Of a stretch of DNA of 11,550 bases, positions 685-11,550 are shown piece by piece. The translations under genes were made by a program, and so were the position numbers. This DNA is from a virus, in the UHGV virus genome UHGV-0196030; one strand, given 5' to 3'. The notes beneath the pieces were generated by a model. The model was given only the letters and a program-made list of their open reading frames with translations. It ran no database searches and had not been told where the DNA came from. The first letter of the stretch is position 1; every line of letters starts with the position of its first letter.

Positions 685-717
685 TCAGGAAGAAGTGATG
701 AGTAACATTTTTCACAG
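685..717. repeat. Left junction: imperfect copy of the eutA 3' end (attL-like) just upstream of the eutB start
   Basis: TCAGGAAGAAGTGATGAGTAACATTTTTCACAG resembles the genuine eutA 3' end at 10688..10720 (TCAGGAAGGAAATGCGAGTGATTTCACCGTCAC): the first 8 nt are identical, then shared TG, GAGT and TTTCAC blocks with indels. Aligned by eye. Confidence 0.45.
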
Positions 718-957
718 CCTGCAAACAATTCTATTTCATCGTTAGCCCTTGTCCTGTAAGGTAATTGGCTTAACACGCCCGCTATTCATCCTGCCGAACG
801 CAACCGAACGCGCCGGATACATGAGCGGGGTTATCGAGTCGTTAGATCGAGGTATCCGGTTTTAAGCAAGACACCACTGACAGCAAAGGGCATAGAGGCC
901 GCCCAGCCGAAGGACAAGCCCTACAAACTCACCGATTCACTAACACCTGGCCTGTTC

Positions 958-2067
958 TTGCTGGTCCATCCCAATGGCAGCAAATACTGGCGATTCCGGT
1001 ACTGGATAGACAAGAAAGAGCGATTACAGGCCATCGGGGTATATCCGCTGATTAGCCTCAAGGAAGCCCGCAAACGCGCCACAGAGAGCCGTTTACTGAT
1101 AGCCCAGGGAATTGACCCAATGGAAGAAGCACGCAAGGAGAAAGCCATTGATGCGCTCAACATGGCGGCAAGTTTTAAGACCGTGGCGGAGGACTGGCTG
1201 ACTACTAGGGTGAGCGGTTGGTCAGAGTCCTACACGAAACAGGTCAGGACGGCGCTGAAAAATGACGTTTACCCCGTGCTGGGTAAGCGTTCAATCGTCG
1301 ATATAACCGCCCGTGATGTTCTGGCATTGCTTCAGAAGAAAGAGCGCACCGCGCCGGAGGCGGCCCATAAGTTACGCCAGCGTATCGGGGAGATCTTCAA
1401 ATTTGCCGTTATCACCGAACTGGTTAACCGGAATCCGGTTGCAGATCTGGATACGGCATTGAAAGCCAGACGCCCAGGCCATAACGCATGGATACAAATT
1501 AGTGAAATTCCGGCCTTCTACAAAGCCCTTGAGAGAGCCGGGAGCGTACAGATTCAGACGGCAATACGCTTGCTTATATTGACGGCATTAAGAACGGCAG
1601 AATTGCGAAAAATGCGGTGGGAATGGGTAGATCTGAGCACGGCAACAATCACCCTACCCGCTGAAGTCATGAAGGCCCGCCGACCGCACGTAGTCCCGTT
1701 ATCCCGGCAAGCGGTCGAGCTATTACAGGACCAGTTTACCCGCAGCGGGTACAGTGCTTTCGTCTTTCCGGGCCGATTCATGGATAAGCCATTGTCAGCA
1801 AGTGCCATCCTTAAAGCCCTGGAGCGTATCGGGTACAAGTCGATCGCCACTGGTCATGGTTGGCGGACCACCTTTTCAACGGCGCTTAATGAGTCTGGCA
1901 GATACTCACCAGACTGGATCGAAATCCAATTGGCCCACGTTCCGAAAGGTGTGCGCGGTGTATATAACCAGGCCGCCTACCTGAAGCAACGGCGGGTAAT
2001 GATGCAGGACTACGCGGACGCTATTGTTCTGATATTGGCTGGTGACGGTAATCCGCTGGAACCGTGA
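958..2067 (+). CDS. intZ: P4-family tyrosine integrase (site-specific recombinase); ORF shown from the first in-frame TTG, but N-terminal homology continues upstream to about 868
   Basis: N-terminal arm-binding-type sequence ...KDKPYKLTDSLTPGLFLLVHPNGSKYWRFRYWIDKKERLQAIGVYPLISLKEARKRATESRLL... and C-terminal catalytic region ...HGWRTTFSTALNESGRYSPDWIEIQLAHVPKGVRGVYNQAAYLKQRRVMMQDYADAI (H-x-x-R and catalytic Tyr as in P4 Int). Symbol given by locus analogy to K-12 CPZ-55, not by sequence identity check. Confidence 0.88.
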   Translation: MLVHPNGSKYWRFRYWIDKKERLQAIGVYPLISLKEARKRATESRLLIAQGIDPMEEARKEKAIDALNMAASFKTVAEDWLTTRVSGWSESYTKQVRTALKNDVYPVLGKRSIVDITARDVLALLQKKERTAPEAAHKLRQRIGEIFKFAVITELVNRNPVADLDTALKARRPGHNAWIQISEIPAFYKALERAGSVQIQTAIRLLILTALRTAELRKMRWEWVDLSTATITLPAEVMKARRPHVVPLSRQAVELLQDQFTRSGYSAFVFPGRFMDKPLSASAILKALERIGYKSIATGHGWRTTFSTALNESGRYSPDWIEIQLAHVPKGVRGVYNQAAYLKQRRVMMQDYADAIVLILAGDGNPLEP

Positions 2068-2074
2068 ACTATAA

Positions 2075-2100
2075 GGCCGGATTCGTCCGGCTTTTCTTTC
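2075..2100 (+). terminator. Rho-independent terminator after the integrase gene
   Basis: Stem GCCGGA (2076..2081) / TCCGGC (2086..2091), loop TTCG, followed by TTTTCTTTC, 8 nt after the TGA stop at 2065..2067. Confidence 0.6.
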
Positions 2101-2104
2101 GCTA

Positions 2105-2135
2105 ATTATTCCATTATTCCAATTAAGTGGAATAA
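2105..2135. promoter_or_regulatory. Operator-like site: tandem ATTATTCC x2 followed by a perfect 8-bp inverted repeat TTATTCCA-n6-TGGAATAA
   Basis: ATTATTCC at 2105..2112 and 2113..2120. Inverted-repeat arms at 2114..2121 and 2128..2135 with a 6-bp spacer, in an AT-rich intergenic region upstream of the 2277 CDS. Confidence 0.35.
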
Positions 2136-2214
2136 ATTATTCAATATCAAGAACTTAAATCCATGTTTGCAACGAAAGATCCAGAGTTCGAAAATAGGAT
2201 CAACACAAATAAAA

Positions 2215-2244
2215 GCCCCCGGCATGTTGCAGCATTCCGGGGGC
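2215..2244 (+). promoter_or_regulatory. Stable stem-loop in the putative 5' leader of the 2277 CDS
   Basis: 8-bp GC stem GCCCCCGG (2215..2222) / CCGGGGGC (2237..2244) with a 14-nt loop, about 30 nt upstream of the AAGGAG Shine-Dalgarno. Confidence 0.3.
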
Positions 2245-2276
2245 GGTATGAGAAACAAGCTAAAGGAGAATTTCTC

Positions 2277-2786
2277 ATGTCTGATATGCTAGCAGTAGAA
2301 CAAGAAACAAACAATGATGTTCGTCAATTTTTAAATAAAATTAACGAGTTACGGAATAAAGCACCCAAAAACGAAGAGACTAAACACGAAGAACACACGC
2401 CAGATCATTACGAGGCAAAACAGCAGGAGCAAGCCTGGCGTGGCAACCTGCGCTACCTGGATACATTAAACCGACTTGATGAGGTATTGCCTCGCAAACT
2501 GTACGAAAGGTGGGAGAAAGAACATACAGTCAACGACGAGGCCGTGCTACGCGCCCTTTGCTACTTTGCTGGTACTGGCAAAAACTCACAGTTGGGATGG
2601 TGCAGGGTTGGCAGGGGAACAATCGACAAGCGAGCCAGGCTATCAAAAAACACGGTTAAAAAATGCCTCGATCGTCTGGTCCACCACTTCAAACTGGTTG
2701 AGCGTACTGAAGGCTATATACCCGGATCGGCAGAAAGGGAATGCAACGAGTACCAGCTATTATTCAAGCCGTACAACATGAAATAA
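2277..2786 (+). CDS. Hypothetical protein, 169 aa, with a C-terminal winged-helix-like DNA-binding region (possible replication initiator or regulator)
   Basis: Strong SD AAGGAG (2263..2268) 8 nt before the ATG at 2277; the ORF-track start at 2163 has no SD. C-terminal segment GWCRVGRGTIDKRARLSKNTVKKCLDRLVHHFKLVERTEG looks like a winged helix. Followed by a terminator and an iteron cluster. Confidence 0.55.
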   Translation: MSDMLAVEQETNNDVRQFLNKINELRNKAPKNEETKHEEHTPDHYEAKQQEQAWRGNLRYLDTLNRLDEVLPRKLYERWEKEHTVNDEAVLRALCYFAGTGKNSQLGWCRVGRGTIDKRARLSKNTVKKCLDRLVHHFKLVERTEGYIPGSAERECNEYQLLFKPYNMK

Positions 2787-2794
2787 CGGAATCA

Positions 2795-2817
2795 GGCGGG
2801 CAATGTTCCCGCCTTTT
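2795..2817 (+). terminator. Rho-independent terminator after the 2277..2786 CDS
   Basis: Stem GGCGGG (2795..2800) / CCCGCC (2808..2813), loop CAATGTT, then TTTTCTTT. Confidence 0.65.
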
Positions 2818-2840
2818 CTTTGCCTTAATTCCATGAATTC

Positions 2841-2964
2841 AGGTGGGTCAAAAGTTGCCGTTAAGGTGGGTCAAAAGTTGCCGAGTAAGAATTCTACTAT
2901 TAAGAATTCTAGGCGACGGGAGTTTTTTAGCCTCCCGGTCGGTCATAGAGAGTCGCCTAGAGTT
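2841..2964. repeat. Iteron-like repeat cluster: two identical 20-bp direct repeats, two TAAGAATTCT repeats and a nested palindrome
   Basis: AGGTGGGTCAAAAGTTGCCG at 2841..2860 and 2864..2883, identical, 23 bp centre to centre. TAAGAATTCT at 2886..2895 and 2901..2910. Inverted repeat CTAGGCGAC (2909..2917) / GTCGCCTAG (2952..2960) enclosing hairpin CGGGAG-n9-CTCCCG. Confidence 0.6.
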
Positions 2965-3793
2965 AAAACAGAAGAATTGTTTCGCCGCCTGATAGGTCGG
3001 CTGGTTGCGAGCATTAACCATGCTGATTAGCGCAATCATTTCCAGCAAGCTGGAAACGCCCATTCACTCACGCACAACCTGAACAGCAGACCAACAGAAC
3101 ATCATGGCGATTCGTTCATGGGTAGCGCGGTATATCTCAAATGTGACGCCTCTTGTTGCTGGACCTTCGGAAAACACCATGGAGACGAAAGTATTCAATC
3201 TGGTCTGGCAGCAGGGAGAGCTTCGCTTCGCTCGTCTCCTGGGGCCAATGCTCAATGAAACGACGTAAGGCACGGAGCGCTCACCATAGGCAGACACATA
3301 AACATCTGAGAGCGCACCTTCTATCGCGCTACGCGCTCAATAAAAACCAACGACACCGCCATCCTGCCTGACCGATGTTTTTAACCAGCGTATACAGAGA
3401 AACAGACAATAGCATGAAATCAGCGTATATCCAGGTGCAGACGGCACTATCACACAACGCACAGCAGGCTTAAGTGACCACTCAGGAAACTTTATCCCCG
3501 CCACCGACTAACGCAAACCGTCCTGACCGCGCCAAATTCGAAAGGAATGCTACCTTAAACGCGATTAACACACATAAGCGCCACACTTACTTACCTGAAA
3601 ACTTCACAGCGTCACAGCGCGTTTTAGACACGTTAAAATCGATGCGATTTCATTAAATTTTTTTCACTCGCCTGAATGGTGGCAATCAGGACTGATTGCA
3701 ACATTGCCCCGCCTCGATACTGAGCGCATAATAAATACATACATTAAGCGGAAACGTCATTAACAGATTTGGAAAAACAATGGGTTACACATC

Positions 3794-4414
3794 ATGCGCA
3801 TATCAAAGCAGCAACGCCAAATCCTCGACTATCTGGCAGAAAACGAATCAATCACAGCACGCCAGGCGGCAGATCTCGTTTATGGCGGCAACGTTACCCG
3901 CGTACAGGTCGATGCAGCCCGCCGTTCACTGATGGCGCTGGTCAGCAATGGGCTAATCATGAAACAAGGCCGCGCTTTCGTAGCTGAAAGACATATCAAT
4001 CACGCTTATAGCCAGGACGTTGAAGAGTTGCGCCGTCAGATCCTTTGGGTATTCAGCAAAGAGGGGCAGGACTATCTCATTTCTGAGCGTCCAAATTACG
4101 CCGCCAAAGAGTTAACAGTAAGCGGATTGTCGTGCGCACTGGATTATCTTGTCGGTGAAGGTTGCGTTACTTACAAGCAGCTATGGCACGCCCTGAACAC
4201 GCTTGTAGAAGATGGTTTACTCATTGCCACGCGTGAGAATATCGAATACTGGATAATGCCGCGTTCAGGTCGCCGCAATCATGCGCGGTATATTTCAGGC
4301 AACAAATACAGAACGCCTGACTTTAATCCGACACAGGAAGATCGGGACCGTGCCGAAATGATGTGCAGGGAACGGGAGAAAAGATTCATGGACAAGTTGT
4401 TTTCGATGCGGTGA
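3794..4414 (+). CDS. Hypothetical protein, 206 aa, with an N-terminal winged-helix/HTH-like region (putative DNA-binding protein)
   Basis: Long ORF with protein-like composition. N-terminal ISKQQRQILDYLAENESITARQAADLVYGG...RSLMALVSNGLIMKQGR resembles MarR/winged-helix recognition helices. Weak SD. A strong terminator follows directly. Confidence 0.5.
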   Translation: MRISKQQRQILDYLAENESITARQAADLVYGGNVTRVQVDAARRSLMALVSNGLIMKQGRAFVAERHINHAYSQDVEELRRQILWVFSKEGQDYLISERPNYAAKELTVSGLSCALDYLVGEGCVTYKQLWHALNTLVEDGLLIATRENIEYWIMPRSGRRNHARYISGNKYRTPDFNPTQEDRDRAEMMCREREKRFMDKLFSMR

Positions 4415-4420
4415 ACACAA

Positions 4421-4443
4421 GCGGGCGCAATGCCCGTTTTTTA
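4421..4443 (+). terminator. Rho-independent terminator after the 3794..4414 CDS
   Basis: Stem CGGGC (4422..4426) / GCCCG (4432..4436), loop GCAAT, followed by T6 (4437..4442), 7 nt after the TGA stop. Confidence 0.7.
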
Positions 4444-4583
4444 TTGCCTTATTCCACGTCAGACGAATCAATCTAATCACACCTGAGCAAATGCATTGCC
4501 AAAAATTTAGGCTGTCAGAATGCGTTTTAGCGCGTTTTAAGGGCATCGAATTTTAATTAATTTTGATGCGGTGATTTGCGGGC

Positions 4584-4671
4584 AAAAAAAATCCAGCCGG
4601 AGAGGGCTGGAAATAGAGACATATCGTTGTAGTTATTAACAGATCACATTTTGAGGCTGAGTATTTACCTC
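4584..4671 (-). ncRNA. Putative small antisense RNA (~88 nt) with its own promoter and intrinsic terminator; contains a 14-nt complement of the HNH gene ribosome-binding region
   Basis: Minus-strand promoter-like hexamers: -35 TTGCAC (complement of 4701..4706), 17-bp spacer, -10 GATAAT (complement of 4678..4683). Minus-strand terminator: stem 4592..4598 / 4605..4611 followed by U8 (complement of A8 at 4584..4591). No ORF longer than about 19 codons inside. Contains the complement of 4643..4656, which is identical to 5090..5103 at the HNH Shine-Dalgarno. Confidence 0.3.
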
Positions 4672-4755
4672 ACTAATATTATCGCGCCGTTATGGTGATT
4701 GTGCAAATCATCTCTTCCAATCACAAAAACGTCATATTCGACAATGAAGCCGTGT

Positions 4756-4784
4756 TTGAACACGTAGGACAATGGGAATAAAAT
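4756..4784 (+). promoter_or_regulatory. Candidate sigma70 promoter for the alpA-HNH operon
   Basis: -35 TTGAAC (4756..4761), 17-bp spacer, -10 TAAAAT (4779..4784). Predicted start near 4791, about 90 nt upstream of alpA. Confidence 0.4.
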
Positions 4785-4823
4785 AATTACATAGGGTTTT
4801 TCTCTTGGCCTATTTTTTCATTC

Positions 4824-4868
4824 AGCGGCGGTTGTTTTTCTCCATATTTCCAGCCGCCGCTCCTTTTC
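4824..4868 (+). promoter_or_regulatory. Leader hairpin with a short U-tract upstream of alpA (possible attenuator)
   Basis: Stem AGCGGCGG (4824..4831) / CCGCCGCT (4854..4861), 22-nt loop, followed by CCTTTTCG, then the alpA SD GAGG at 4872..4875. Confidence 0.3.
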
Positions 4869-4883
4869 GAAGAGGTGATGAAA

Positions 4884-5075
4884 ATGAACGACTTTCCCGA
4901 ATTGATAAGCTGCGAACAAGTCGCTCGACTTTTTTGTGTAAGCAAGCGCACGATTCTCAGGTGGGTAGATAAAATCCCCGGCTTTCCAATCCCTGTAAGT
5001 CCTGAAGGAACCCCGCTCCGCTTTATTCGCAGCGAAATTCTCGAGTATTTCTACAGAGGGCACAACCATAAATAA
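4884..5075 (+). CDS. alpA: AlpA-family phage transcriptional regulator / excisionase-like HTH protein (about 63 aa)
   Basis: Small protein with the AlpA-like pattern ...LISCEQVARLFCVSKRTILRWVDKIPGFPIPVSPEGTPLRFIRSEILEYF. SD GAGG at 4872..4875, 8 nt before the ATG at 4884; in-frame GTG 4875 and ATG 4878 sit too close to the SD. Symbol is family-level. Confidence 0.7.
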   Translation: MNDFPELISCEQVARLFCVSKRTILRWVDKIPGFPIPVSPEGTPLRFIRSEILEYFYRGHNHK

Positions 5076-5111
5076 CGAAATAAAATCCCATCACATTTTG
5101 AGGTAAACATC

Positions 5112-5507
5112 ATGACCAATATCGAAAGATTAGAACGCTGTGCCGATATTATGCGGCGCAGATGGATTTATGACCCTGAAGCGGGTTTATTGTTTAGCCG
5201 TGAAACAAAAGACGTTATCAAAGGCAGCATGACCAATAAAGGGCATTTGGTTGTAACGGTACATGAAGGTAAATTCAAAGTGACACTCACCTATCAGAAA
5301 GCCTGCTATGTATACACATACGGCGCTTATGACGAGACATTATATGAAGTGCACCACGTTAATTTGAACAAACAGGATAACCGCATCAAGAATATTCGCC
5401 TGATGCCGAAAGAAAAGCACCGCCGGATACATAAAAACGTCCGCAAACTTATTCGGCTGGGCCACACACAATGGCTTCAACCGCAATTAATTGAACAATC
5501 ACTATAA
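5112..5507 (+). CDS. HNH endonuclease (HNH_3-type), 131 aa
   Basis: Motif YEVHHVNLNKQDNRIKNIRLMPKEKHRRIH matches the H-H-x-N...N-R...N-(I/L)-R signature of phage HNH_3 nucleases. SD GAGG at 5100..5103, 8 nt before the ATG. Confidence 0.6.
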   Translation: MTNIERLERCADIMRRRWIYDPEAGLLFSRETKDVIKGSMTNKGHLVVTVHEGKFKVTLTYQKACYVYTYGAYDETLYEVHHVNLNKQDNRIKNIRLMPKEKHRRIHKNVRKLIRLGHTQWLQPQLIEQSL

Positions 5508-5524
5508 ACACAGGAGTAAATACC

Positions 5525-5788
5525 ATGCATTCATTAGACAGTTATTTTCAGCGCACGACAGCCCCTAAATCAGCTGCCCAGGAACGCCGTGAGGAATTCC
5601 ATGAGAAAGTGATGCGTTCTGCTGATTATATTGCGGACAAGTTCGTGGAAACGGTTCGTCCACTTGTTGATGAAGTAGCTGATAAACTTCAGTCTGAAAT
5701 GCCGGAAGATATGGAAGGCACTGCAAAGCGGCGACTCATTTGCGAATTAAGTCGTCGTTTTGGCGTGTCAATAAGCGCTTTTAAATAA
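5525..5788 (+). CDS. Hypothetical protein, 87 aa
   Basis: Strong SD AGGAG (5512..5516) 8 nt before the ATG. Tightly packed between the HNH gene and the next ORF. Charged, protein-like composition. Confidence 0.5.
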   Translation: MHSLDSYFQRTTAPKSAAQERREEFHEKVMRSADYIADKFVETVRPLVDEVADKLQSEMPEDMEGTAKRRLICELSRRFGVSISAFK

Positions 5789-5810
5789 TCGAAAAAAGGG
5801 GGGAAAGATA

Positions 5811-6353
5811 ATGGACGCATTTGAGGTACTGGCAAATAAAGGCGCGGAACTGGTAGCACAGCGTGATAAAACCGCCAACGAAGGGGAACGCGCACTGCTA
5901 AATAGACAGATTAAAGCGATCCGTATGGCCCAGTTTAAATTAATCAGCAATGAAGTTATCGAAACAATTAAACCGCAGATCCCACAAATCGTTGCTGACG
6001 CTATTAAAGCCGCCGGACTGGAGAAACGCATTGCCGGGCTAAAAACGAACGCAGAGAAAATGGAGATGCACAAACAGAGCGGTGCTCCGAATCCCGATGA
6101 GTACTTCTCACCGGATGTTGAGTTTATGGCGCAGGTTGAGGAACGTCTGGGTAGCTGTCTCACCGAGGAACAGCGTCGCTATTTTGATGGAGTGGATAGT
6201 TCGGCAGGTATTGACCTGAACTCGTATTTCGGTCGTGAAATTGAGCATTTTGATGCCGCCCCGTCTATGCCGGAGCCAGAAACAGAAATGGCCGCCGATC
6301 CTGAAGCTGAGCAACGGAAACGCGTATTCAATGCGATAGGGATTCGGTACTGA
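5811..6353 (+). CDS. Hypothetical protein, 180 aa, acidic C-terminus
   Basis: G-rich SD (AAGGGGGG, 5796..5803) before the ATG at 5811, which lies 22 nt after the previous stop. Codon usage looks coding. No motif recognised. Confidence 0.5.
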   Translation: MDAFEVLANKGAELVAQRDKTANEGERALLNRQIKAIRMAQFKLISNEVIETIKPQIPQIVADAIKAAGLEKRIAGLKTNAEKMEMHKQSGAPNPDEYFSPDVEFMAQVEERLGSCLTEEQRRYFDGVDSSAGIDLNSYFGREIEHFDAAPSMPEPETEMAADPEAEQRKRVFNAIGIRY

Positions 6354-6404
6354 TCGGATAAAAGAAAGCCGGGAATTACCCCGGCTGACTTAACAATGTG
6401 ACCA

Positions 6405-6779
6405 ATGAACAAATCGGACAAGACAAACAGGATAAGCAGTCTCGAAACAATGTTCGGGAACTATATTAGCACAAGTCCGGAGAAAATCATCATGTTGGCA
6501 CTACGCATCATGCAGGGCATCGCTAAGACCCTCGCAGAACATGTCTTAGACCTGAAACATTCGCCACTGAGCAAACAGGCCATGAAGCGCCAAACGCTTC
6601 GTCTGTGGGCTGAATATTCGCTTGGAACTATCAATAAGCTCATCAATATGAAGTCGAAAGATAATGGCAGTGTCCATGAGTGTAACAGCGAAGAAAAGGA
6701 ATTTGTGAAACGCCTGAAGTTAATCCGCGCCGATATTCACTCACAACTGGCCTCTTGTGGTTGCGATATTGATGACTAA
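6405..6779 (+). CDS. Hypothetical protein (124 aa from ATG 6405; a better-supported start at ATG 6492 would give 95 aa)
   Basis: ATG 6405 has no SD. The in-frame ATG at 6492 is preceded by GGAGA (6479..6483) at 8-nt spacing. The C-terminal region is the same either way. Confidence 0.45.
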   Translation: MNKSDKTNRISSLETMFGNYISTSPEKIIMLALRIMQGIAKTLAEHVLDLKHSPLSKQAMKRQTLRLWAEYSLGTINKLINMKSKDNGSVHECNSEEKEFVKRLKLIRADIHSQLASCGCDIDD

Positions 6780-6808
6780 CAGCGTGCTAACGGGGGGTTA
6801 ATCGCCCC

Positions 6809-6858
6809 TTAGCGATAGCTTAGCTAACTGTTAGTGAGCCTTAGCGACATCTTAGCGA
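6809..6858. repeat. Five helically phased iterons TTAG(C/T)(G/T)A immediately upstream of the terS-like gene (candidate packaging or protein-binding array)
   Basis: TTAGCGA 6809, TTAGCTA 6820, TTAGTGA 6831, TTAGCGA 6841, TTAGCGA 6852: spacing 11, 11, 10, 11 bp. Preceded by a G-rich hairpin-like GGGGGG-TTAAT-CGCCCC at 6792..6808. Confidence 0.55.
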
Positions 6859-6878
6859 CAGTTTAACCGGGGGTAAAT

Positions 6879-7283
6879 GTGGAGACTGAAGATAAAGAAA
6901 TCAATAACTTGCCTGTAAATGGCAACAGGTTAGCGAGAAAAAGGGCCAAATATACCATCGCGCTGGCGGAAGAAATTTGTTTGTTGGTAGCGGAAGGCCA
7001 TAGCCTACGTGAGATCGCGAAGATGCCAGACATGCCATCGTTACGCACTTTAATGCGGTGGCAATATGAACATCCAGATTTCAGAGAGCACATCGGTATT
7101 TTTAAGTGGATTCACGCCCAGGACGCAGCAGAGCAAGCTGTTGAAGCTATCAGAGATGTAGATCTGGAAGCGGAAGACGCGCCACTGAAATTAAAACAGG
7201 CTGAGGCATTAGCCCGCACTTTGTTAGGTCGTGCCAAATTGCTTGAGAGCAAAAACAATCCATTCAACGGGGGTGACAAATGA
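6879..7283 (+). CDS. Phage terminase small subunit (TerS)-like protein, 134 aa, GTG start
   Basis: N-terminal HTH region KYTIALAEEICLLVAEGHSLREIAKMPDMPSLRTLMRWQYEHPDFREHI matches the pattern I recall for TerS-family proteins (Y-T-x-E-L-A-x-x-I-C...G-x-S-L-R-x-I...M-P-S-x-x-T-x-x-R-W). G-rich SD at 6868..6872. Confidence 0.55.
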   Translation: METEDKEINNLPVNGNRLARKRAKYTIALAEEICLLVAEGHSLREIAKMPDMPSLRTLMRWQYEHPDFREHIGIFKWIHAQDAAEQAVEAIRDVDLEAEDAPLKLKQAEALARTLLGRAKLLESKNNPFNGGDK

Positions 7284-7789
7284 GCTTTATGGGTAAACAC
7301 AAGACTGGTGGTAAAGACGACGCACAGGGCTTGTTTAAGGCCGGGAAAAAGGCATCTTTAACGCCGGAAGAAAAAGATAGACAACTACAGCTTAAGCCAT
7401 TCAGCCAGTGGACAAAGCAGGATATCGCGATGTGGCGAGCCGTTAATATTGAACGCTGCCAGGAAGACGTAGACGACGGACTGATGGAAGATTTCGAACT
7501 GGACGATCTGATTAATTGTTGGGCCTTCGAGATCGTCGATGATGCGCTTATCCGTACCCGTACCGCGCCGCCGTGTGAGGAAATGATGCTGGGACTGATG
7601 AAGCCGACTACGGATCTGGTTGTTGGTTACTGTCAGATTGATGGCCTTGATAGCCTTGCCGCCGCCGATACAACCGACTCAATGGAACAAGCCGCACGCC
7701 AGCAACGGAAGATTGAACTGCAACGACGCCTACACCATGAGCGCAACGTACCAGGGCAAGAACTGGAAACCATCCCGCGCCGCCAGTAA
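7280..7789 (+). CDS. Hypothetical protein, 169 aa, translationally coupled to the terS-like gene
   Basis: ATG at 7280 overlaps the terS-like TGA stop (ATGA overlap at 7280..7283). GGGGG (7269..7273) serves as SD. Acidic, Cys-containing protein with no recognised motif. Confidence 0.5.
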   Translation: MSFMGKHKTGGKDDAQGLFKAGKKASLTPEEKDRQLQLKPFSQWTKQDIAMWRAVNIERCQEDVDDGLMEDFELDDLINCWAFEIVDDALIRTRTAPPCEEMMLGLMKPTTDLVVGYCQIDGLDSLAAADTTDSMEQAARQQRKIELQRRLHHERNVPGQELETIPRRQ

Positions 7790-7815
7790 TTTTCGGACAA
7801 GCGGGCGCGCAGCCA

Positions 7816-7841
7816 ACGCCAGGGGCATCCAGACTGGCGGA
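7816..7841 (+). repeat. Hairpin element ACGCCAGGGG-CAGACTGGCGGA, copy 1 (copy 2 at 9976..9999)
   Basis: Stem CGCCAG / CTGGCG conserved in both copies; the loops differ by a 2-nt indel. Each copy lies 10-27 nt after a stop codon (7789 and 9966). Confidence 0.45.
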
Positions 7842-8120
7842 ATATATCAATAGTGCGCATTAGATACATTATGTGAAAAACGACATGAGTATATATCAGT
7901 ACTGATTTTACTGGAAAAACTTGATTTTCAGTATCAATCCCAAAGAAGTATGGCTAATGCAGCTTTATAAGCAATTGATTCTATTAAGCGATGTTTTTTG
8001 TGATTGGTTGAAGCAAACCGGAATACGAAGACAGTGAAGCGGCAATAAACTGTTTCAATGTGAAATTATCAGAGTAAACAACAATTTTGGAGGTGTCCGC
8101 ACAACGCGGATAGCAATATC

Positions 8121-9966
8121 ATGAGTGGAAATCTTGGGACCATTTACTATGAGGTGGACGCCCGCACGGGTAAGCTACTGATGGCACAAGAAGAAGCGAA
8201 TCAGGCTTTTGATGCCATTGAGCGTGGCGCAAAACGTGCTGATAACGGCGTCAAAAAACTGAATACGCAGATGACCAAAACGTCTGCCGCAGTAAAATCA
8301 AATTTCTCATTTGCAATCAAAAACGCATCCTACCAGATAGCAGACCTTGCTACACAACTTCAGATGGGCGGTAATGCCATCCAGGTCTTTGCCGTTCAAG
8401 GGGCGCAGCTTGTCGCTGCATTTGGTACTGGCGGTGCGGTCATGGGTGCGGTCATGGCTATTGGCGGGGCAATTGCCAACAGCCTTACGGATAACATGGA
8501 TGACGCCACGGATAGAAAAATACATTGATGCGCTACTCCGCTACAGCAACGAGGTGCTAACAGCAGAAGAGCGTCAAACGGCGTTAAACGAGGCACTGAA
8601 TGCTGGGGCGTCTGCGGCAGCAATTGCCACTGGCGAAATGCTGATTAAACAGGAGCAGATCAAGCAAGAGAAGCTAAAAGGCAATGAGAACGCTGCGCTT
8701 GATATGGCGCTGGCTGAGGGCAAGTTAACGAAGGCGGATCACGATAGGCTTGTCCAGATGCGAGAAGAAACAAAGGAATTGGAGGAGAACAAACGCAAGG
8801 AAGAAGAGAACGCCAGGGAGAAAGAACGAGCAGCCAAACAGGCAGAAAGCGCGGCGAAACAGGCGGCGAAACAGGCGCAACGCGAACTTGAACAGCTTCA
8901 GAAACGCGGGCAAGGTGTAGCTGACAAGTACAACGTAGAGGGCGCAGCACAGCGTAAACTAAAAGAAGACCAGGAAGCGCTAAATGCAGCAATGGAAGCT
9001 GGCAAAATCAGCACAGAACAATATAACGCAGCGTGGGCCGGACTCCTGAGAACGGAGGCGCAACGCAAACAGCAAGCCGGATGGGATAATCTTGTCAGCC
9101 GGGAAGATAAGCTAAAAGGCCGTGTTGACCCAATCCAGCAGGTGATGAACGAATGGAATGTTCGCAAGCAAATGATGCTCGATTTAGGCGTCACTGAGGC
9201 AACCATGCGGCAAGCAGAGATCGACCACAAAGAACGAATTCTTAACCTTCAGTGGCAGCAATGGCAGGCGCAAAGCGATACTAACGCGCTTGTAGGTAAC
9301 ATGATTGATGGCCTCGCTTCCGGTGCTGGTAGCGCATTTACCGGACTGCTTAACGGATCTCAATCGTTCCAGGAATCACTTGCTAACATCGGAACGACCA
9401 TTATCAACCAGGTTGTTGGAAGCCTTGCGCAGATGGGGGCGGAATACGTTAAACAGCTTGTTATGGGTGAGGTTGCGCAGAAATCAGCCTCCGCATCAGC
9501 TACTGCAACGGCAGCGGCAACAGGCGCATCAATCGCATCATCAATGGCCCCAGCAGCAGCGGCGACAGCAACCGCGACAATGGGTACGGCCCCGATGGTG
9601 GCGATGTCTGCGATGTCGGCATTAATGACTGGCATTACAAGCCTATTTGGCGGACGTCGCTACAACGGCGGCGCGGTTAATGGCGGCAATATGTATCGAG
9701 TCGGTGAAAACAAAGTACCTGAACTATTCCAGACCAATAACGGACGGCAGTACATGATTCCGGGTGAGAATGGTCGCATCATTCCTGGTCGTGATATTGG
9801 TGGCGGTAACGTTAGCATAAACGCGCCTATAACCGTTTACCCACAAAACGGTTGGACCGAACAGGATAGCAAGGCATTGCAGCAGACGATTGAGAATACA
9901 GCGATGCGGTTGATGCAGAGAGAATCAACCAGGCCGGGCGGAATGCTCCAGGGTCGCCGCCGTTAA
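8121..9966 (+). pseudogene. Lambda gpH-like tail tape-measure gene, split by a frameshift near 8516..8528 into 8121..8528 and a second frame running to 9966
   Basis: N-terminal part (...YQIADLATQLQMGGNAIQVFAVQGAQLVAAFGTGGAVMGAVMAIGGAIANSL) resembles the lambda H region FTDVATQLAGGQSPWLILLQQGGQV. Downstream frame has coiled-coil KEEENAREKERAAKQAESAAKQAAKQAQRELEQLQKRG and a Gly/Ala/Thr-rich C-terminus ending GGMLQGRRR (lambda H ends GGLFSGGGR). The two frames are offset by +1, with an A5 run at 8516..8520 just before the frame-0 stop. No other tail genes are present. Confidence 0.6.
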
Positions 9967-10136
9967 CCAAATCCCACGCCAGGGGAACAGACTGGCGGAC
10001 CTTCAAAGACGGTCGCACACCGTGTTTAACATAATTTATTGTTTTTTGCTTGCTCTTATTATTGCAGCCGTTAGAGTTGGCGTGGCAGTTTTTCACCTGT
10101 TTCGCGTGTTGCTGTGTTTTTGGGGAAGAAAAACAA

Positions 10137-10232
10137 ATGAGAAGGCTTATATACCTGGTATTTATGCTATTTGCTATCGGGCAAGCCATAATTTTTATCA
10201 CAATGCTGATCTGTCTGATGCTCTTTGGTTAA
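10137..10232 (+). CDS. Small hydrophobic peptide, 31 aa (MRRLIYLVFMLFAIGQAIIFITMLICLMLFG): candidate small membrane protein or type I toxin-like peptide
   Basis: SD GGGGAAG (10122..10128) 8 nt before the ATG at 10137. Single predicted transmembrane helix after an N-terminal RR. The stop is followed within 10 nt by an intrinsic terminator. Confidence 0.4.
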   Translation: MRRLIYLVFMLFAIGQAIIFITMLICLMLFG

Positions 10233-10240
10233 CTCCACCA

Positions 10241-10260
10241 GGACCCGCGACGGGTTTTTA
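10241..10260 (+). terminator. Rho-independent terminator after the small hydrophobic ORF
   Basis: Stem ACCCG (10243..10247) / CGGGT (10251..10255), loop CGA, followed by TTTTT. Confidence 0.55.
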
Positions 10261-10431
10261 TACCATCATTATTAAATCTATTAATAATCATCAAACCATA
10301 ATTAGCACAACTTATAATCGAGCAAAAATCACACAACCTTGATAAGTTGAGCTAATGGCTATATGTTTTTCTGATGAAATCCTAATGGCGAAAACTTGCG
10401 ACGATACCGAAAAAACCGCGAAAATTGAAGT

Positions 10432-10541
10432 GTTCTTTCTTTTTTTGTTTTTTATTTTTTTATTTTCTCTTTTTCTTCTCTTTCCGGTTCTCTTCTTTTT
10501 CTGGTTTTGGTTTTTTCCTTTTTTATTTTTATTCTTTCTTC
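10432..10541. repeat. Polypyrimidine (T/C-rich) low-complexity tract of about 110 bp; polypurine on the minus strand
   Basis: GTTCTTTCTTTTTTTGTTTTTTATTTTTTTATTTTCTCTTTTTCTTCTCTTTCCGGTTCTCTTCTTTTTCTGGTTTTGGTTTTTTCCTTTTTTATTTTTATTCTTTCTTC; strongly pyrimidine-biased, with only scattered purines. Confidence 0.7.
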
Positions 10542-10687
10542 AGGGTTGTGCTAAAACACACCAAAACATTTTCGCCACAAAAGCGTTAATTTCATCCTGC
10601 CAGACCATTCACTTTCACCGGATACACAGCCGGATATATTCCCACTAACACCCCACCACCCAGCGCCACGCCTGATAACTACCGTAT

Positions 10688-10720
10688 TCAGGAAGGAAAT
10701 GCGAGTGATTTCACCGTCAC
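10688..10720. repeat. Right junction: the genuine eutA 3' end, partner of the imperfect repeat at 685..717 (attR-like)
   Basis: TCAGGAAGGAAATGCGAGTGATTTCACCGTCAC includes the eutA stop codon (TCA on +, TGA on minus). See the left-junction repeat. Confidence 0.45.
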
Positions 10721-11550
10721 CGGCACAACCGATCCGCCAAAAAGAGGCGTACCAATGTCGATATAGTCCCCCGCGCGGACAATCACTTCGTCAATGACTG
10801 CCAACGGGAGTTGTTGTAGCTGTGGGCGCAACAACATGCCCAGAGCTTTACCAAAGTCCTGCCCGGCCACCACCAGCAGGGGATGCGGATTCGGAAAACG
10901 CGCGACGAAATCGACCAGCGCGTTGATGACCGTCAGTACCGCGGCGTAACGCACAGGCAGCGAGGCGGGAAGCGCCAGCACGTACGCGTCAGTTTTGGGA
11001 TCAAGATCCAGCTGAAGCAGCGCCTGTTGCCAGGCACTCACCAGATCCGTTTCATCAATCGGGATCGCCACCGGCAAATTGCGCAGCGGCAGTTGTACGC
11101 CCTCCAGCCAGATTGTGCTGCCAGAGAGCGAAAGGGTATGTGCACCCGCGCCAATCACCGTGGCGCGTACGGTTTGCGCCGGAAACTGCACATTCATCTC
11201 ACGCAGGCGCGGATGGTCATGCAGCGCCGTTGCCAGAAGTGGGCCAATATCGGCAAAACAGAACGGGTCGGCGGGCTGGTGGCGATAACATTCGCCCACG
11301 CCTCCAGAAAGCGTAATGATTTCGGGCGTAACACCTGCGGGCAGCAAACCGGTTTGCATCAATGCCTGCGCGAGCGGCGAAAGCGTTCCGTCAATCACTT
11401 CGACAATCAGCGCCGCCATCCGCCGGGTAACCTGCACCAGCTGCGCGCCGGTCAGCGAACGGGCGTCAGTGCCTGCACCGAAGCACTCATCCACAATCAT
11501 CTGCCCCGGTTTATGAGCGTAAACCACGCGCCCGTGGCTGTCGGTTTCCA
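10688..11550 (-). CDS. eutA: Ethanolamine utilisation protein EutA (ethanolamine ammonia-lyase reactivase), C-terminal ~287 codons; gene continues past the window end
   Basis: Minus-strand frame open from the window end to the stop at 10688..10690, ending ...GTPLFGGSVVPVTVKSLAFPS. Lies directly upstream of eutB in operon orientation, as in the eut operon order eutA then eutB. Confidence 0.85.
   Translation of the reverse strand, partial: ETDSHGRVVYAHKPGQMIVDECFGAGTDARSLTGAQLVQVTRRMAALIVEVIDGTLSPLAQALMQTGLLPAGVTPEIITLSGGVGECYRHQPADPFCFADIGPLLATALHDHPRLREMNVQFPAQTVRATVIGAGAHTLSLSGSTIWLEGVQLPLRNLPVAIPIDETDLVSAWQQALLQLDLDPKTDAYVLALPASLPVRYAAVLTVINALVDFVARFPNPHPLLVVAGQDFGKALGMLLRPQLQQLPLAVIDEVIVRAGDYIDIGTPLFGGSVVPVTVKSLAFPS

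Follow-up and report, generated by a model that had tools for sequence, protein, structure and literature searches.

The DNA analysed here, UHGV virus genome UHGV-0196030, is a stretch of 11,550 nucleotides (the window). Sequence matching places it on the Escherichia coli chromosome at the eut operon, where a 10-kb island of the CPZ-55 family (693-10687) lies between eutB and eutA. Near the right end of this island, on the plus strand, is a short open reading frame (ORF) of 31 codons plus TAA (10137..10232), which we call ORF-B and which is a plausible new gene of a generally known type, coding for a small membrane protein. It runs from the ATG at 10137 to the TAA at 10230-10232 and encodes MRRLIYLVFMLFAIGQAIIFITMLICLMLFG, exactly the peptide that an earlier note, made from the sequence alone, had read at this position. 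One transmembrane helix is predicted in the product. The mean Kyte-Doolittle hydropathy over the 31 residues is 2.05, which places the peptide within the size and hydrophobicity range of type I toxins (fewer than 60 residues, hydrophobic, transmembrane). Longer forms of ORF-B, one of 60 residues starting at TTG 10050 and one of 51 residues deposited in GenBank for E. coli MS 78-1, were considered and rejected, as a stop codon interrupts them in 4 of 9 variants (ES5 and the lineage of the island integrated in ychJ).

ORF-B is located in an AT-rich accessory module (9999..10250, plus strand) with a GC content of 38-40%, compared with 50-58% in the preceding gene. By position, the values are 37.5-39.5% at 10000-10299 and 48-58% at 9400-9999. 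The preceding gene is tape-measure-like (8121..9966, plus strand) and is the last large gene ahead of the module. Just past its stop codon is a hairpin, CGCCAG-N9-CTGGCG, without a T-run (9977..9997, plus strand), and the insert begins after GACTGGCGG, at about 9999. The 3' end of the module is cut in the window; in full-length islands, it measures about 353 nt. In the island of strain 13TMH22, these ~353 nt, including ORF-B, lie between GACTGGCGG and ATACGCGAAAAATCC. The collinear island of strain 2012C-4431 (L064) is without them, and the hairpin CGCCAG...CTGGCG after the tape-measure stop runs directly into TCCTACGCGAAAAATCC. Inspection of the insert ends revealed neither terminal inverted repeats nor a target duplication, and a miniature transposable element was rejected as an explanation of the insert.

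Evidence bearing on ORF-B as a gene

The hydrophobicity of ORF-B is specific to its frame. T occupies 68% of the second codon positions, but only 19% and 29% of positions 1 and 3, respectively. A hydropathy of 2.05 was reached in 10 of 20,000 mononucleotide shuffles of ORF-B (p = 5e-4), and none of 400 dinucleotide shuffles of the 721-nt intergenic region (9967-10687) contained an equally hydrophobic ORF of at least 31 residues with an ATG start. With copies of ORF-B excluded, 1 of 2,282 ATG-initiated ORFs of 25-60 residues was as hydrophobic in real sequence from E. coli and phages totalling 390 kb. This corresponds to ~4e-4 per small ORF, and therefore about 0.03 such ORFs are expected per window. 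These values argue against a chance open frame in a T-rich non-coding spacer, be it the tape-measure operon's 3' untranslated region or the terminal part of the island, in which the conservation of ORF-B would only reflect recent shared ancestry. In our view, such a chance frame is the less probable explanation. It is favoured by the composition of the region, which is 37% T and in which the neighbouring frames upstream are also hydrophobic; a nearby T-rich tract yields nonsense frames that are even more hydrophobic than ORF-B. An ORF of this length with an equal Shine-Dalgarno (SD) sequence is also not unusual, as it arises in 26% of the shuffles of 9967-10687.

Codon usage speaks against a chance frame as well. 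A codon log-odds score comparing in-frame with off-frame codons was trained on the genes of the island. ORF-B scores 0.371 per codon and equals real island genes, 31-codon pieces of which reach 12.29 in total, or about 0.40 per codon. In a set of 122 spurious small ORFs, the score was 0.012 ± 0.19, and ORF-B falls within their top 1.6%. ORF-B thus has the codon-position and codon-usage statistics of a coding frame. The antisense frame that is codon-aligned to ORF-B holds only a 23-residue ORF; therefore, a gene on the opposite strand is not the source of the signal.

The reading frame is intact wherever the locus was found. In 49 of 49 complete genomes with the locus, 116 of 116 bases aligned without gaps, and neither an indel nor a stop codon occurs in ORF-B in these genomes or in 9 viral or metagenome contigs. 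Only two alleles, L4F and G31S, were seen. Variable events number 2 in the 96 nt of ORF-B and 14 in 148 nt of flanking sequence (Fisher p = 0.03). The flanks have taken indels of +2, -9, and +1, all three within the 127 nt just upstream, while the frame of ORF-B was kept open. ORF-B is the only constrained part of the ~350-nt AT-rich insert. This speaks against a chance frame, but conservation is weak evidence here and has little power, because all copies are nearly identical.

The points that weigh against ORF-B as a gene begin with this narrow variation. All copies are 98-100% identical to each other, and both substitutions in ORF-B (L4F and G31S) are non-synonymous and none is synonymous, as might be seen in a chance frame. 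The changes are conservative and close to the ends of the peptide. With two substitutions only, the data do not demonstrate purifying selection at the protein level. Several codons of ORF-B are rare in E. coli, namely AGA and AGG at positions 2 and 3, as well as ATA and CTA. The Prokaryotic Genome Annotation Pipeline (PGAP) never annotates ORF-B.

Relatives were equally scarce. A phmmer search of 1.84 billion representative proteins returned only the 51-residue E. coli MS 78-1 protein, which comes from the same locus, and a word-based search of 5.8 billion proteins, with the 60-residue extension as query, returned only that protein again. No match was obtained with tblastn against 50,697 phage and 72,556 plasmid records. 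A degenerate peptide pattern found only near-identical E. coli copies in metagenomes, and exact and degenerate DNA patterns found nothing or such copies only in genome, viral, and metagenome collections. In 42 IMG/VR phage contigs and one Brenneria locus with a related tape-measure C-terminus, there was no related small ORF and no DNA similarity past the tape-measure stop. The searches that were run thus gave no homologue in another species, which again suits a chance frame. A PADLOC scan reported no known system, and a literature search for the peptide sequence found no paper. Judged by these sequence searches, ORF-B is an orphan present in about 1% of E. coli genomes.

The expression signals around ORF-B are ordinary, too. 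The SD-like motif GGGGAAG (10122..10128, plus strand; AGGGAAG in the ychJ lineage) lies 8 nt before the ATG. Motif and spacing agree with the earlier note, which had called the site good; its pairing energy with the anti-SD sequence, however, is only -5.5 kcal/mol, an average value that is matched or bettered by 11% of the 378 ATGs in the window. For most island genes, the SD energies lie between -6.6 and -11.2 kcal/mol. Upstream of ORF-B, a consensus scan finds no sigma-70 promoter. A weight-matrix scan proposes two overlapping weak sigma-70-like candidates (10035..10077, plus strand), TTTATT(10035)-16-TATTAT(10057) and TTGCTC(10050)-16-TAGAGT(10072). Both are unremarkable, as about 35 sites with such a score are expected in the window, and the second has lost its first T in the ychJ lineage.

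Downstream, a weak hairpin followed by T5 is present (10240..10259, plus strand), beginning 7-10 nt past the stop codon. It consists of ACCCG (10243-10247), the loop CGA, and CGGGT (10251-10255). The hairpin and the T-run are thus found where an intrinsic terminator had been proposed, 10 nt after the stop; the strength of a terminator is not. No terminator is called after ORF-B by the consensus scan, the core stem has 5 bp, and the energy of -8.3 kcal/mol is attained only if the T-run pairs and is equalled in 29 of 200 shuffles. In the native module, the hairpin folds at -11 kcal/mol, which is not better than shuffles either. It also gathers substitutions and varies between copies. A compact unit of promoter, SD, peptide, and terminator, as described earlier, therefore overstates what is present: no promoter is evident, the SD is of average strength, and the presumed terminator is a weak hairpin that varies between copies and, in the window, is a deletion joint. 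Ordinary signals of this kind are what a chance frame would have.

In one strain, the SD itself has been hit. In GF31 (locus L065 at ~1635, equivalent to 10124 of the window), an IS1 element sits precisely within the SD of ORF-B, and a deletion extends from there to maeB. This strain has lost ORF-B together with part of the eut operon.

A different frame might be the real gene. PGAP annotates a 106-residue hypothetical protein (WP_072004891.1) in several genomes, which starts at a GTG without an SD and covers 10022..10342 on the plus strand; we call this the ORF-A frame. In the ychJ lineage, the same frame is a shorter, 39-residue hydrophobic ORF, and its TGA stop codon overlaps the ATG of ORF-B. 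That ORF-B was said to fall below the usual annotation length cut-offs is hence not the whole matter, since PGAP calls this overlapping ORF in some genomes and nothing in most. Besides its annotation, the ORF-A frame has in its favour that 3 of 6 substitutions are synonymous, that the 9-nt deletion is in frame, and that the ATGA overlap in strains 873.10 and 14EC001 looks like translational coupling. The overlap of the 39-residue ORF-A with the start of ORF-B is suggestive, but not significant. Against the frame stand the GTG start without an SD (-3.3 kcal/mol) and shifts of +2 in AR_0061 and of +1 in the ychJ lineage. The C-terminal two thirds of the 106-residue product differ between islands because they cross the deletion joint. 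Its hydrophobicity does not exceed composition (p = 0.07), its codon log-odds are ambiguous (2.2, compared with an in-frame mean of 12.3), and no family match was found in Pfam or NCBIfam. We therefore regard either form of this frame as a very improbable candidate for the gene. WP_072004891.1 is probably a mis-call, and correcting it would be one practical outcome for annotation.

Taken together, the balance tips modestly towards ORF-B as a true small gene that is confined to E. coli. Translation of ORF-B as a real gene, with the type I toxin variant counted as well, is slightly easier to accept. The proposal of a small single-pass membrane peptide on a mobile element is supported by the frame-specific hydropathy, the rarity of ~4e-4, the codon statistics, the intact frame, and the moron-like location of the insert.

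The deletion joint and the island

The hairpin behind ORF-B marks the place where part of the island has been lost. In full-length islands, e.g., that of 13TMH22 (L009), ORF-B is followed by the 40-nt sequence CCAGGACCCGCGCCGGGTTTTGCTATACAGACCAATCACT and then by a spacer of ~500 nt, two hypothetical genes, and a yffS-like gene, and a second copy of this 40-nt sequence stands just ahead of eutA. The similarity of the window to this arrangement breaks off within the hairpin, and from 10244 the window continues with the eutA-proximal end common to ~250 genomes. The joint is situated in the common motif CCCGCG(A/C)CGGGTTTT (10244..10250), with the module on its left and this eutA-proximal end on its right. 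The hairpin in the window is a chimera of the native module, which contributes the left half, and the eutA-proximal hairpin, which contributes the right half, and the cargo genes, i.e., the two hypothetical proteins and the yffS-like gene, are missing. Recombination between the two similar hairpins deleted the cargo genes. Therefore, ORF-B is now the last frame before eutA, and what had been taken for its terminator is a deletion joint.

In strains AR_0061 and CV839-06, the cargo was lost through recombination between the two 40-nt repeats. ORF-B has therefore survived three different right-end configurations. The 40-nt direct repeat itself (the hairpin plus GCTATACAGNCCANTCACT; L009 12249-12288 and 14554-14593, window 10244-10258) flanks the cargo in full-length islands and has been used at least two times as a recombination site for cargo loss. 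The hairpin was also considered as an attachment site of the island. This was rejected, as the true ends are given by the TCAGGAAG duplication.

Related islands contain a second small hydrophobic ORF (L009 12698-12760 and L064 1176-1235), which is deleted from the window. It has a strong SD, GGGAGGT, and lies immediately upstream of the first cargo gene. The two copies, MKRWELILLVAVMIICCIEL and MKRWEVILLMVMMFVMCID, differ by synonymous and conservative changes, for which reason this ORF looks like a conserved small gene or leader peptide.

The island is bordered by an 8-bp target-site duplication, TCAGGAAG. The left copy is at 685..692, so that the island starts at 693, and the right copy at 10688..10695 overlaps the stop codon of eutA. 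Both neighbouring genes are on the minus strand; eutB is cut by the left end of the window and extends to ~673, and eutA occupies 10688-11550. The island encodes an integrase, an HNH endonuclease, a protein resembling the Sf6-type small terminase (TerS-like), and the tape-measure-like protein. Capsid and portal genes are absent, and this gene content gives the island the look of a satellite or remnant of a phage. With genes for integrase, HNH, TerS-like, and tape-measure proteins and none for a capsid, it would be an unusual satellite, and a literature search found no link between CPZ-55 and satellites.

The closest complete genome is that of strain MB19, with 99.9% identity. Compared with MB19, a 527-bp deletion in the window frameshifts the tape-measure gene, which is broken into 8121-8528 and 8347-9966. 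The island in the window is decayed. The C-terminal 299 residues of the tape-measure protein share 50-55% identity with their counterparts in ~54-kb IMG/VR phages, possible helper phages.

A sister lineage of the island is integrated in ychJ, beside insertion sequence (IS) fragments, and also contains the ORF-B module. In strain 873.10 (locus L010, 5461-13084), where the sister island is found in ychJ and not between eutA and eutB, the gene order is alike (integrase, helix-turn-helix protein, HNH, a 180-residue protein, etc.). The tape-measure gene is replaced there by IS256 and ISNCY fragments, and the ORF-B module is retained.

Two further features of the window were noted. At 2838-2883, in a stretch that is unannotated in MB19, there are two tandem 23-nt repeats, TT(C/A)AGGTGGGTCAAAAGTTGCCG, which may be a regulator-binding site or an iteron. 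At 10425-10549, a tract of ~125 nt consists almost entirely of T and C and is purine-rich on the coding strand of the eut operon. The tract lies within an insert (10256-10598), a segment of ~350 nt of the eutA-proximal island end common to ~250 E. coli genomes, and generates long nonsense "hydrophobic" frames, e.g., 10355-10648.

Proposed function and comparison with known systems

If ORF-B is translated, its product would be a 31-residue single-pass peptide of the inner membrane. According to the positive-inside rule, which is well established, Met-Arg-Arg would remain in the cytoplasm and be followed by a hydrophobic helix of 27 residues. Transcription could start from a weak internal promoter or continue into ORF-B from the tape-measure operon by read-through. 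The inner membrane, into which the peptide would insert, would also be its site of action; there, it might modulate the membrane, serve as an exclusion factor resembling gp15 of phage HK97, or act as a toxic peptide. As a more specific proposal, ORF-B could be a recently born, E. coli-specific membrane-protein gene on a satellite-like island, which either acts like gp15 and keeps the DNA of competing or helper phages from entering or is toxic under an unrecognised control. We put this forward very tentatively, as an unlikely reading.

Should the peptide be made, the accessory genome of E. coli would gain a further small membrane protein that annotation has missed, and ORF-B would be an example of an orphan gene on a satellite-like island at the eut locus. 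It opens no new class of system and settles no open question; prophage remnants commonly carry small hydrophobic ORFs, of which few have a known role.

A toxic peptide was the function suggested by the earlier note, which had likened ORF-B to Hok, Ldr, Ibs, and TisB. ORF-B would then be the toxin of a new type I pair. Its translation would be repressed by an antisense or overlapping small RNA, and expression of the peptide would depolarise the inner membrane. ORF-B shares with the known pairs (Ibs/Sib, Ldr/Rdl, Hok/Sok, TisB/IstR-1, ShoB/OhsC, ZorO/OrzO, and DinQ/AgrB) a very short, nearly entirely hydrophobic product with a basic N-terminus in the style of Ibs, as well as an intergenic position on horizontally acquired, mobile DNA and an SD. 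On the antisense strand downstream, there are also weak sigma-70-like matches, TTGATG ... AATAAT at 10294-10268; promoter-like matches of this kind near ORF-B are no better than background, and no antisense unit was detectable. Unlike the known toxins, ORF-B has no toxin-family profile match: none in Pfam-A at E <= 10, and in NCBIfam at E <= 10 only TatA, by chance (E = 2.6). Rfam 15, searched with both strands of 9800-10800 (E <= 5), yielded only two eukaryotic chance matches and no antitoxin RNA. A structured RNA at the locus was rejected, with z-scores of about 0 for the fold of 10010-10262 (z = +0.30) and for the other strand (-0.18). There is likewise no structured leader or fold-back that would limit translation, and the SD region is unstructured (z = +1.08). 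No complementary repeat was found elsewhere in the island, and the locus is single-copy per genome. In addition, the downstream DNA, in which an antisense promoter would lie, has been replaced in three ways with ORF-B left intact. An essential antitoxin encoded there is therefore hard to reconcile with these replacements. The comparison does not hold beyond the nature of the peptide, and a type I toxin label for ORF-B is unsupported. We consider a type I pair improbable, rather more so than a chance frame.

A second group for comparison are the small inner-membrane proteins of E. coli. KdpF, MgtS, AcrZ, and YohP are chromosomally encoded, and their expression was confirmed experimentally by tagging and ribosome profiling. 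ORF-B resembles them in having fewer than 50 residues, one predicted helix, and a positive end, and in being missed by standard annotation. It differs from these chromosomal proteins of experimentally shown expression as a predicted orphan found in 1% of E. coli genomes.

The island as a whole compares with the K-12 cryptic prophage CPZ-55 (intZ, yffL to yffS; PMC6379469). Both are integrated at a common site between eutA and eutB, and the identical 8-bp duplication TCAGGAAG is given for CPZ-55 (PMC6379469). An intZ-type integrase and yffS-type cargo are present in related copies of the island. In contrast to CPZ-55, the copy in the window has HNH, TerS-like, and tape-measure-like genes, and its yffS end is lost. 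The ORF-B module differs further in being present in only 49-53 of 5,426 complete genomes, which we infer are too few to include the many K-12 derivatives of the collection.

Morons have been defined as extra DNA relative to a collinear element, with a deviating GC content, their own promoter and terminator, and expression from the repressed prophage (Juhala et al. 2000, summarised in PMC3594210). The ORF-B insert is extra DNA in an otherwise collinear island, and its GC content differs from that of the surrounding genes. For a promoter and terminator of its own, the consensus scan gives none, the weight matrix gives promoter matches at background level, and the hairpin is weak and variable. 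By its sequence, the insert looks moron-like in layout because it is present in some related islands and absent in others.

The moron formed by gene 15 of phage HK97 encodes gp15, a YebO-like superinfection-exclusion protein of the inner membrane, and lies beside the tape-measure gene (PMC3594210). ORF-B differs from gp15 in several respects. It is unrelated in sequence to gp15 or YebO (no Pfam, NCBIfam, or phmmer match), and it has no convincing promoter or terminator of its own. With 31 residues, its product is also shorter than the proteins of the YebO family. The ORF-B insert is located after the tape-measure gene and gp15 before it, and the carrier is a satellite-like cryptic island rather than a full phage. 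In both cases, however, the insert is extra DNA in one of two otherwise collinear elements, has a lower GC content than its neighbours, directly adjoins a tape-measure gene, and encodes a small protein that, for ORF-B, is predicted to reside in the inner membrane. By analogy of position and type, the HK97 gp15 moron would thus appear to be the nearest analogue of ORF-B.

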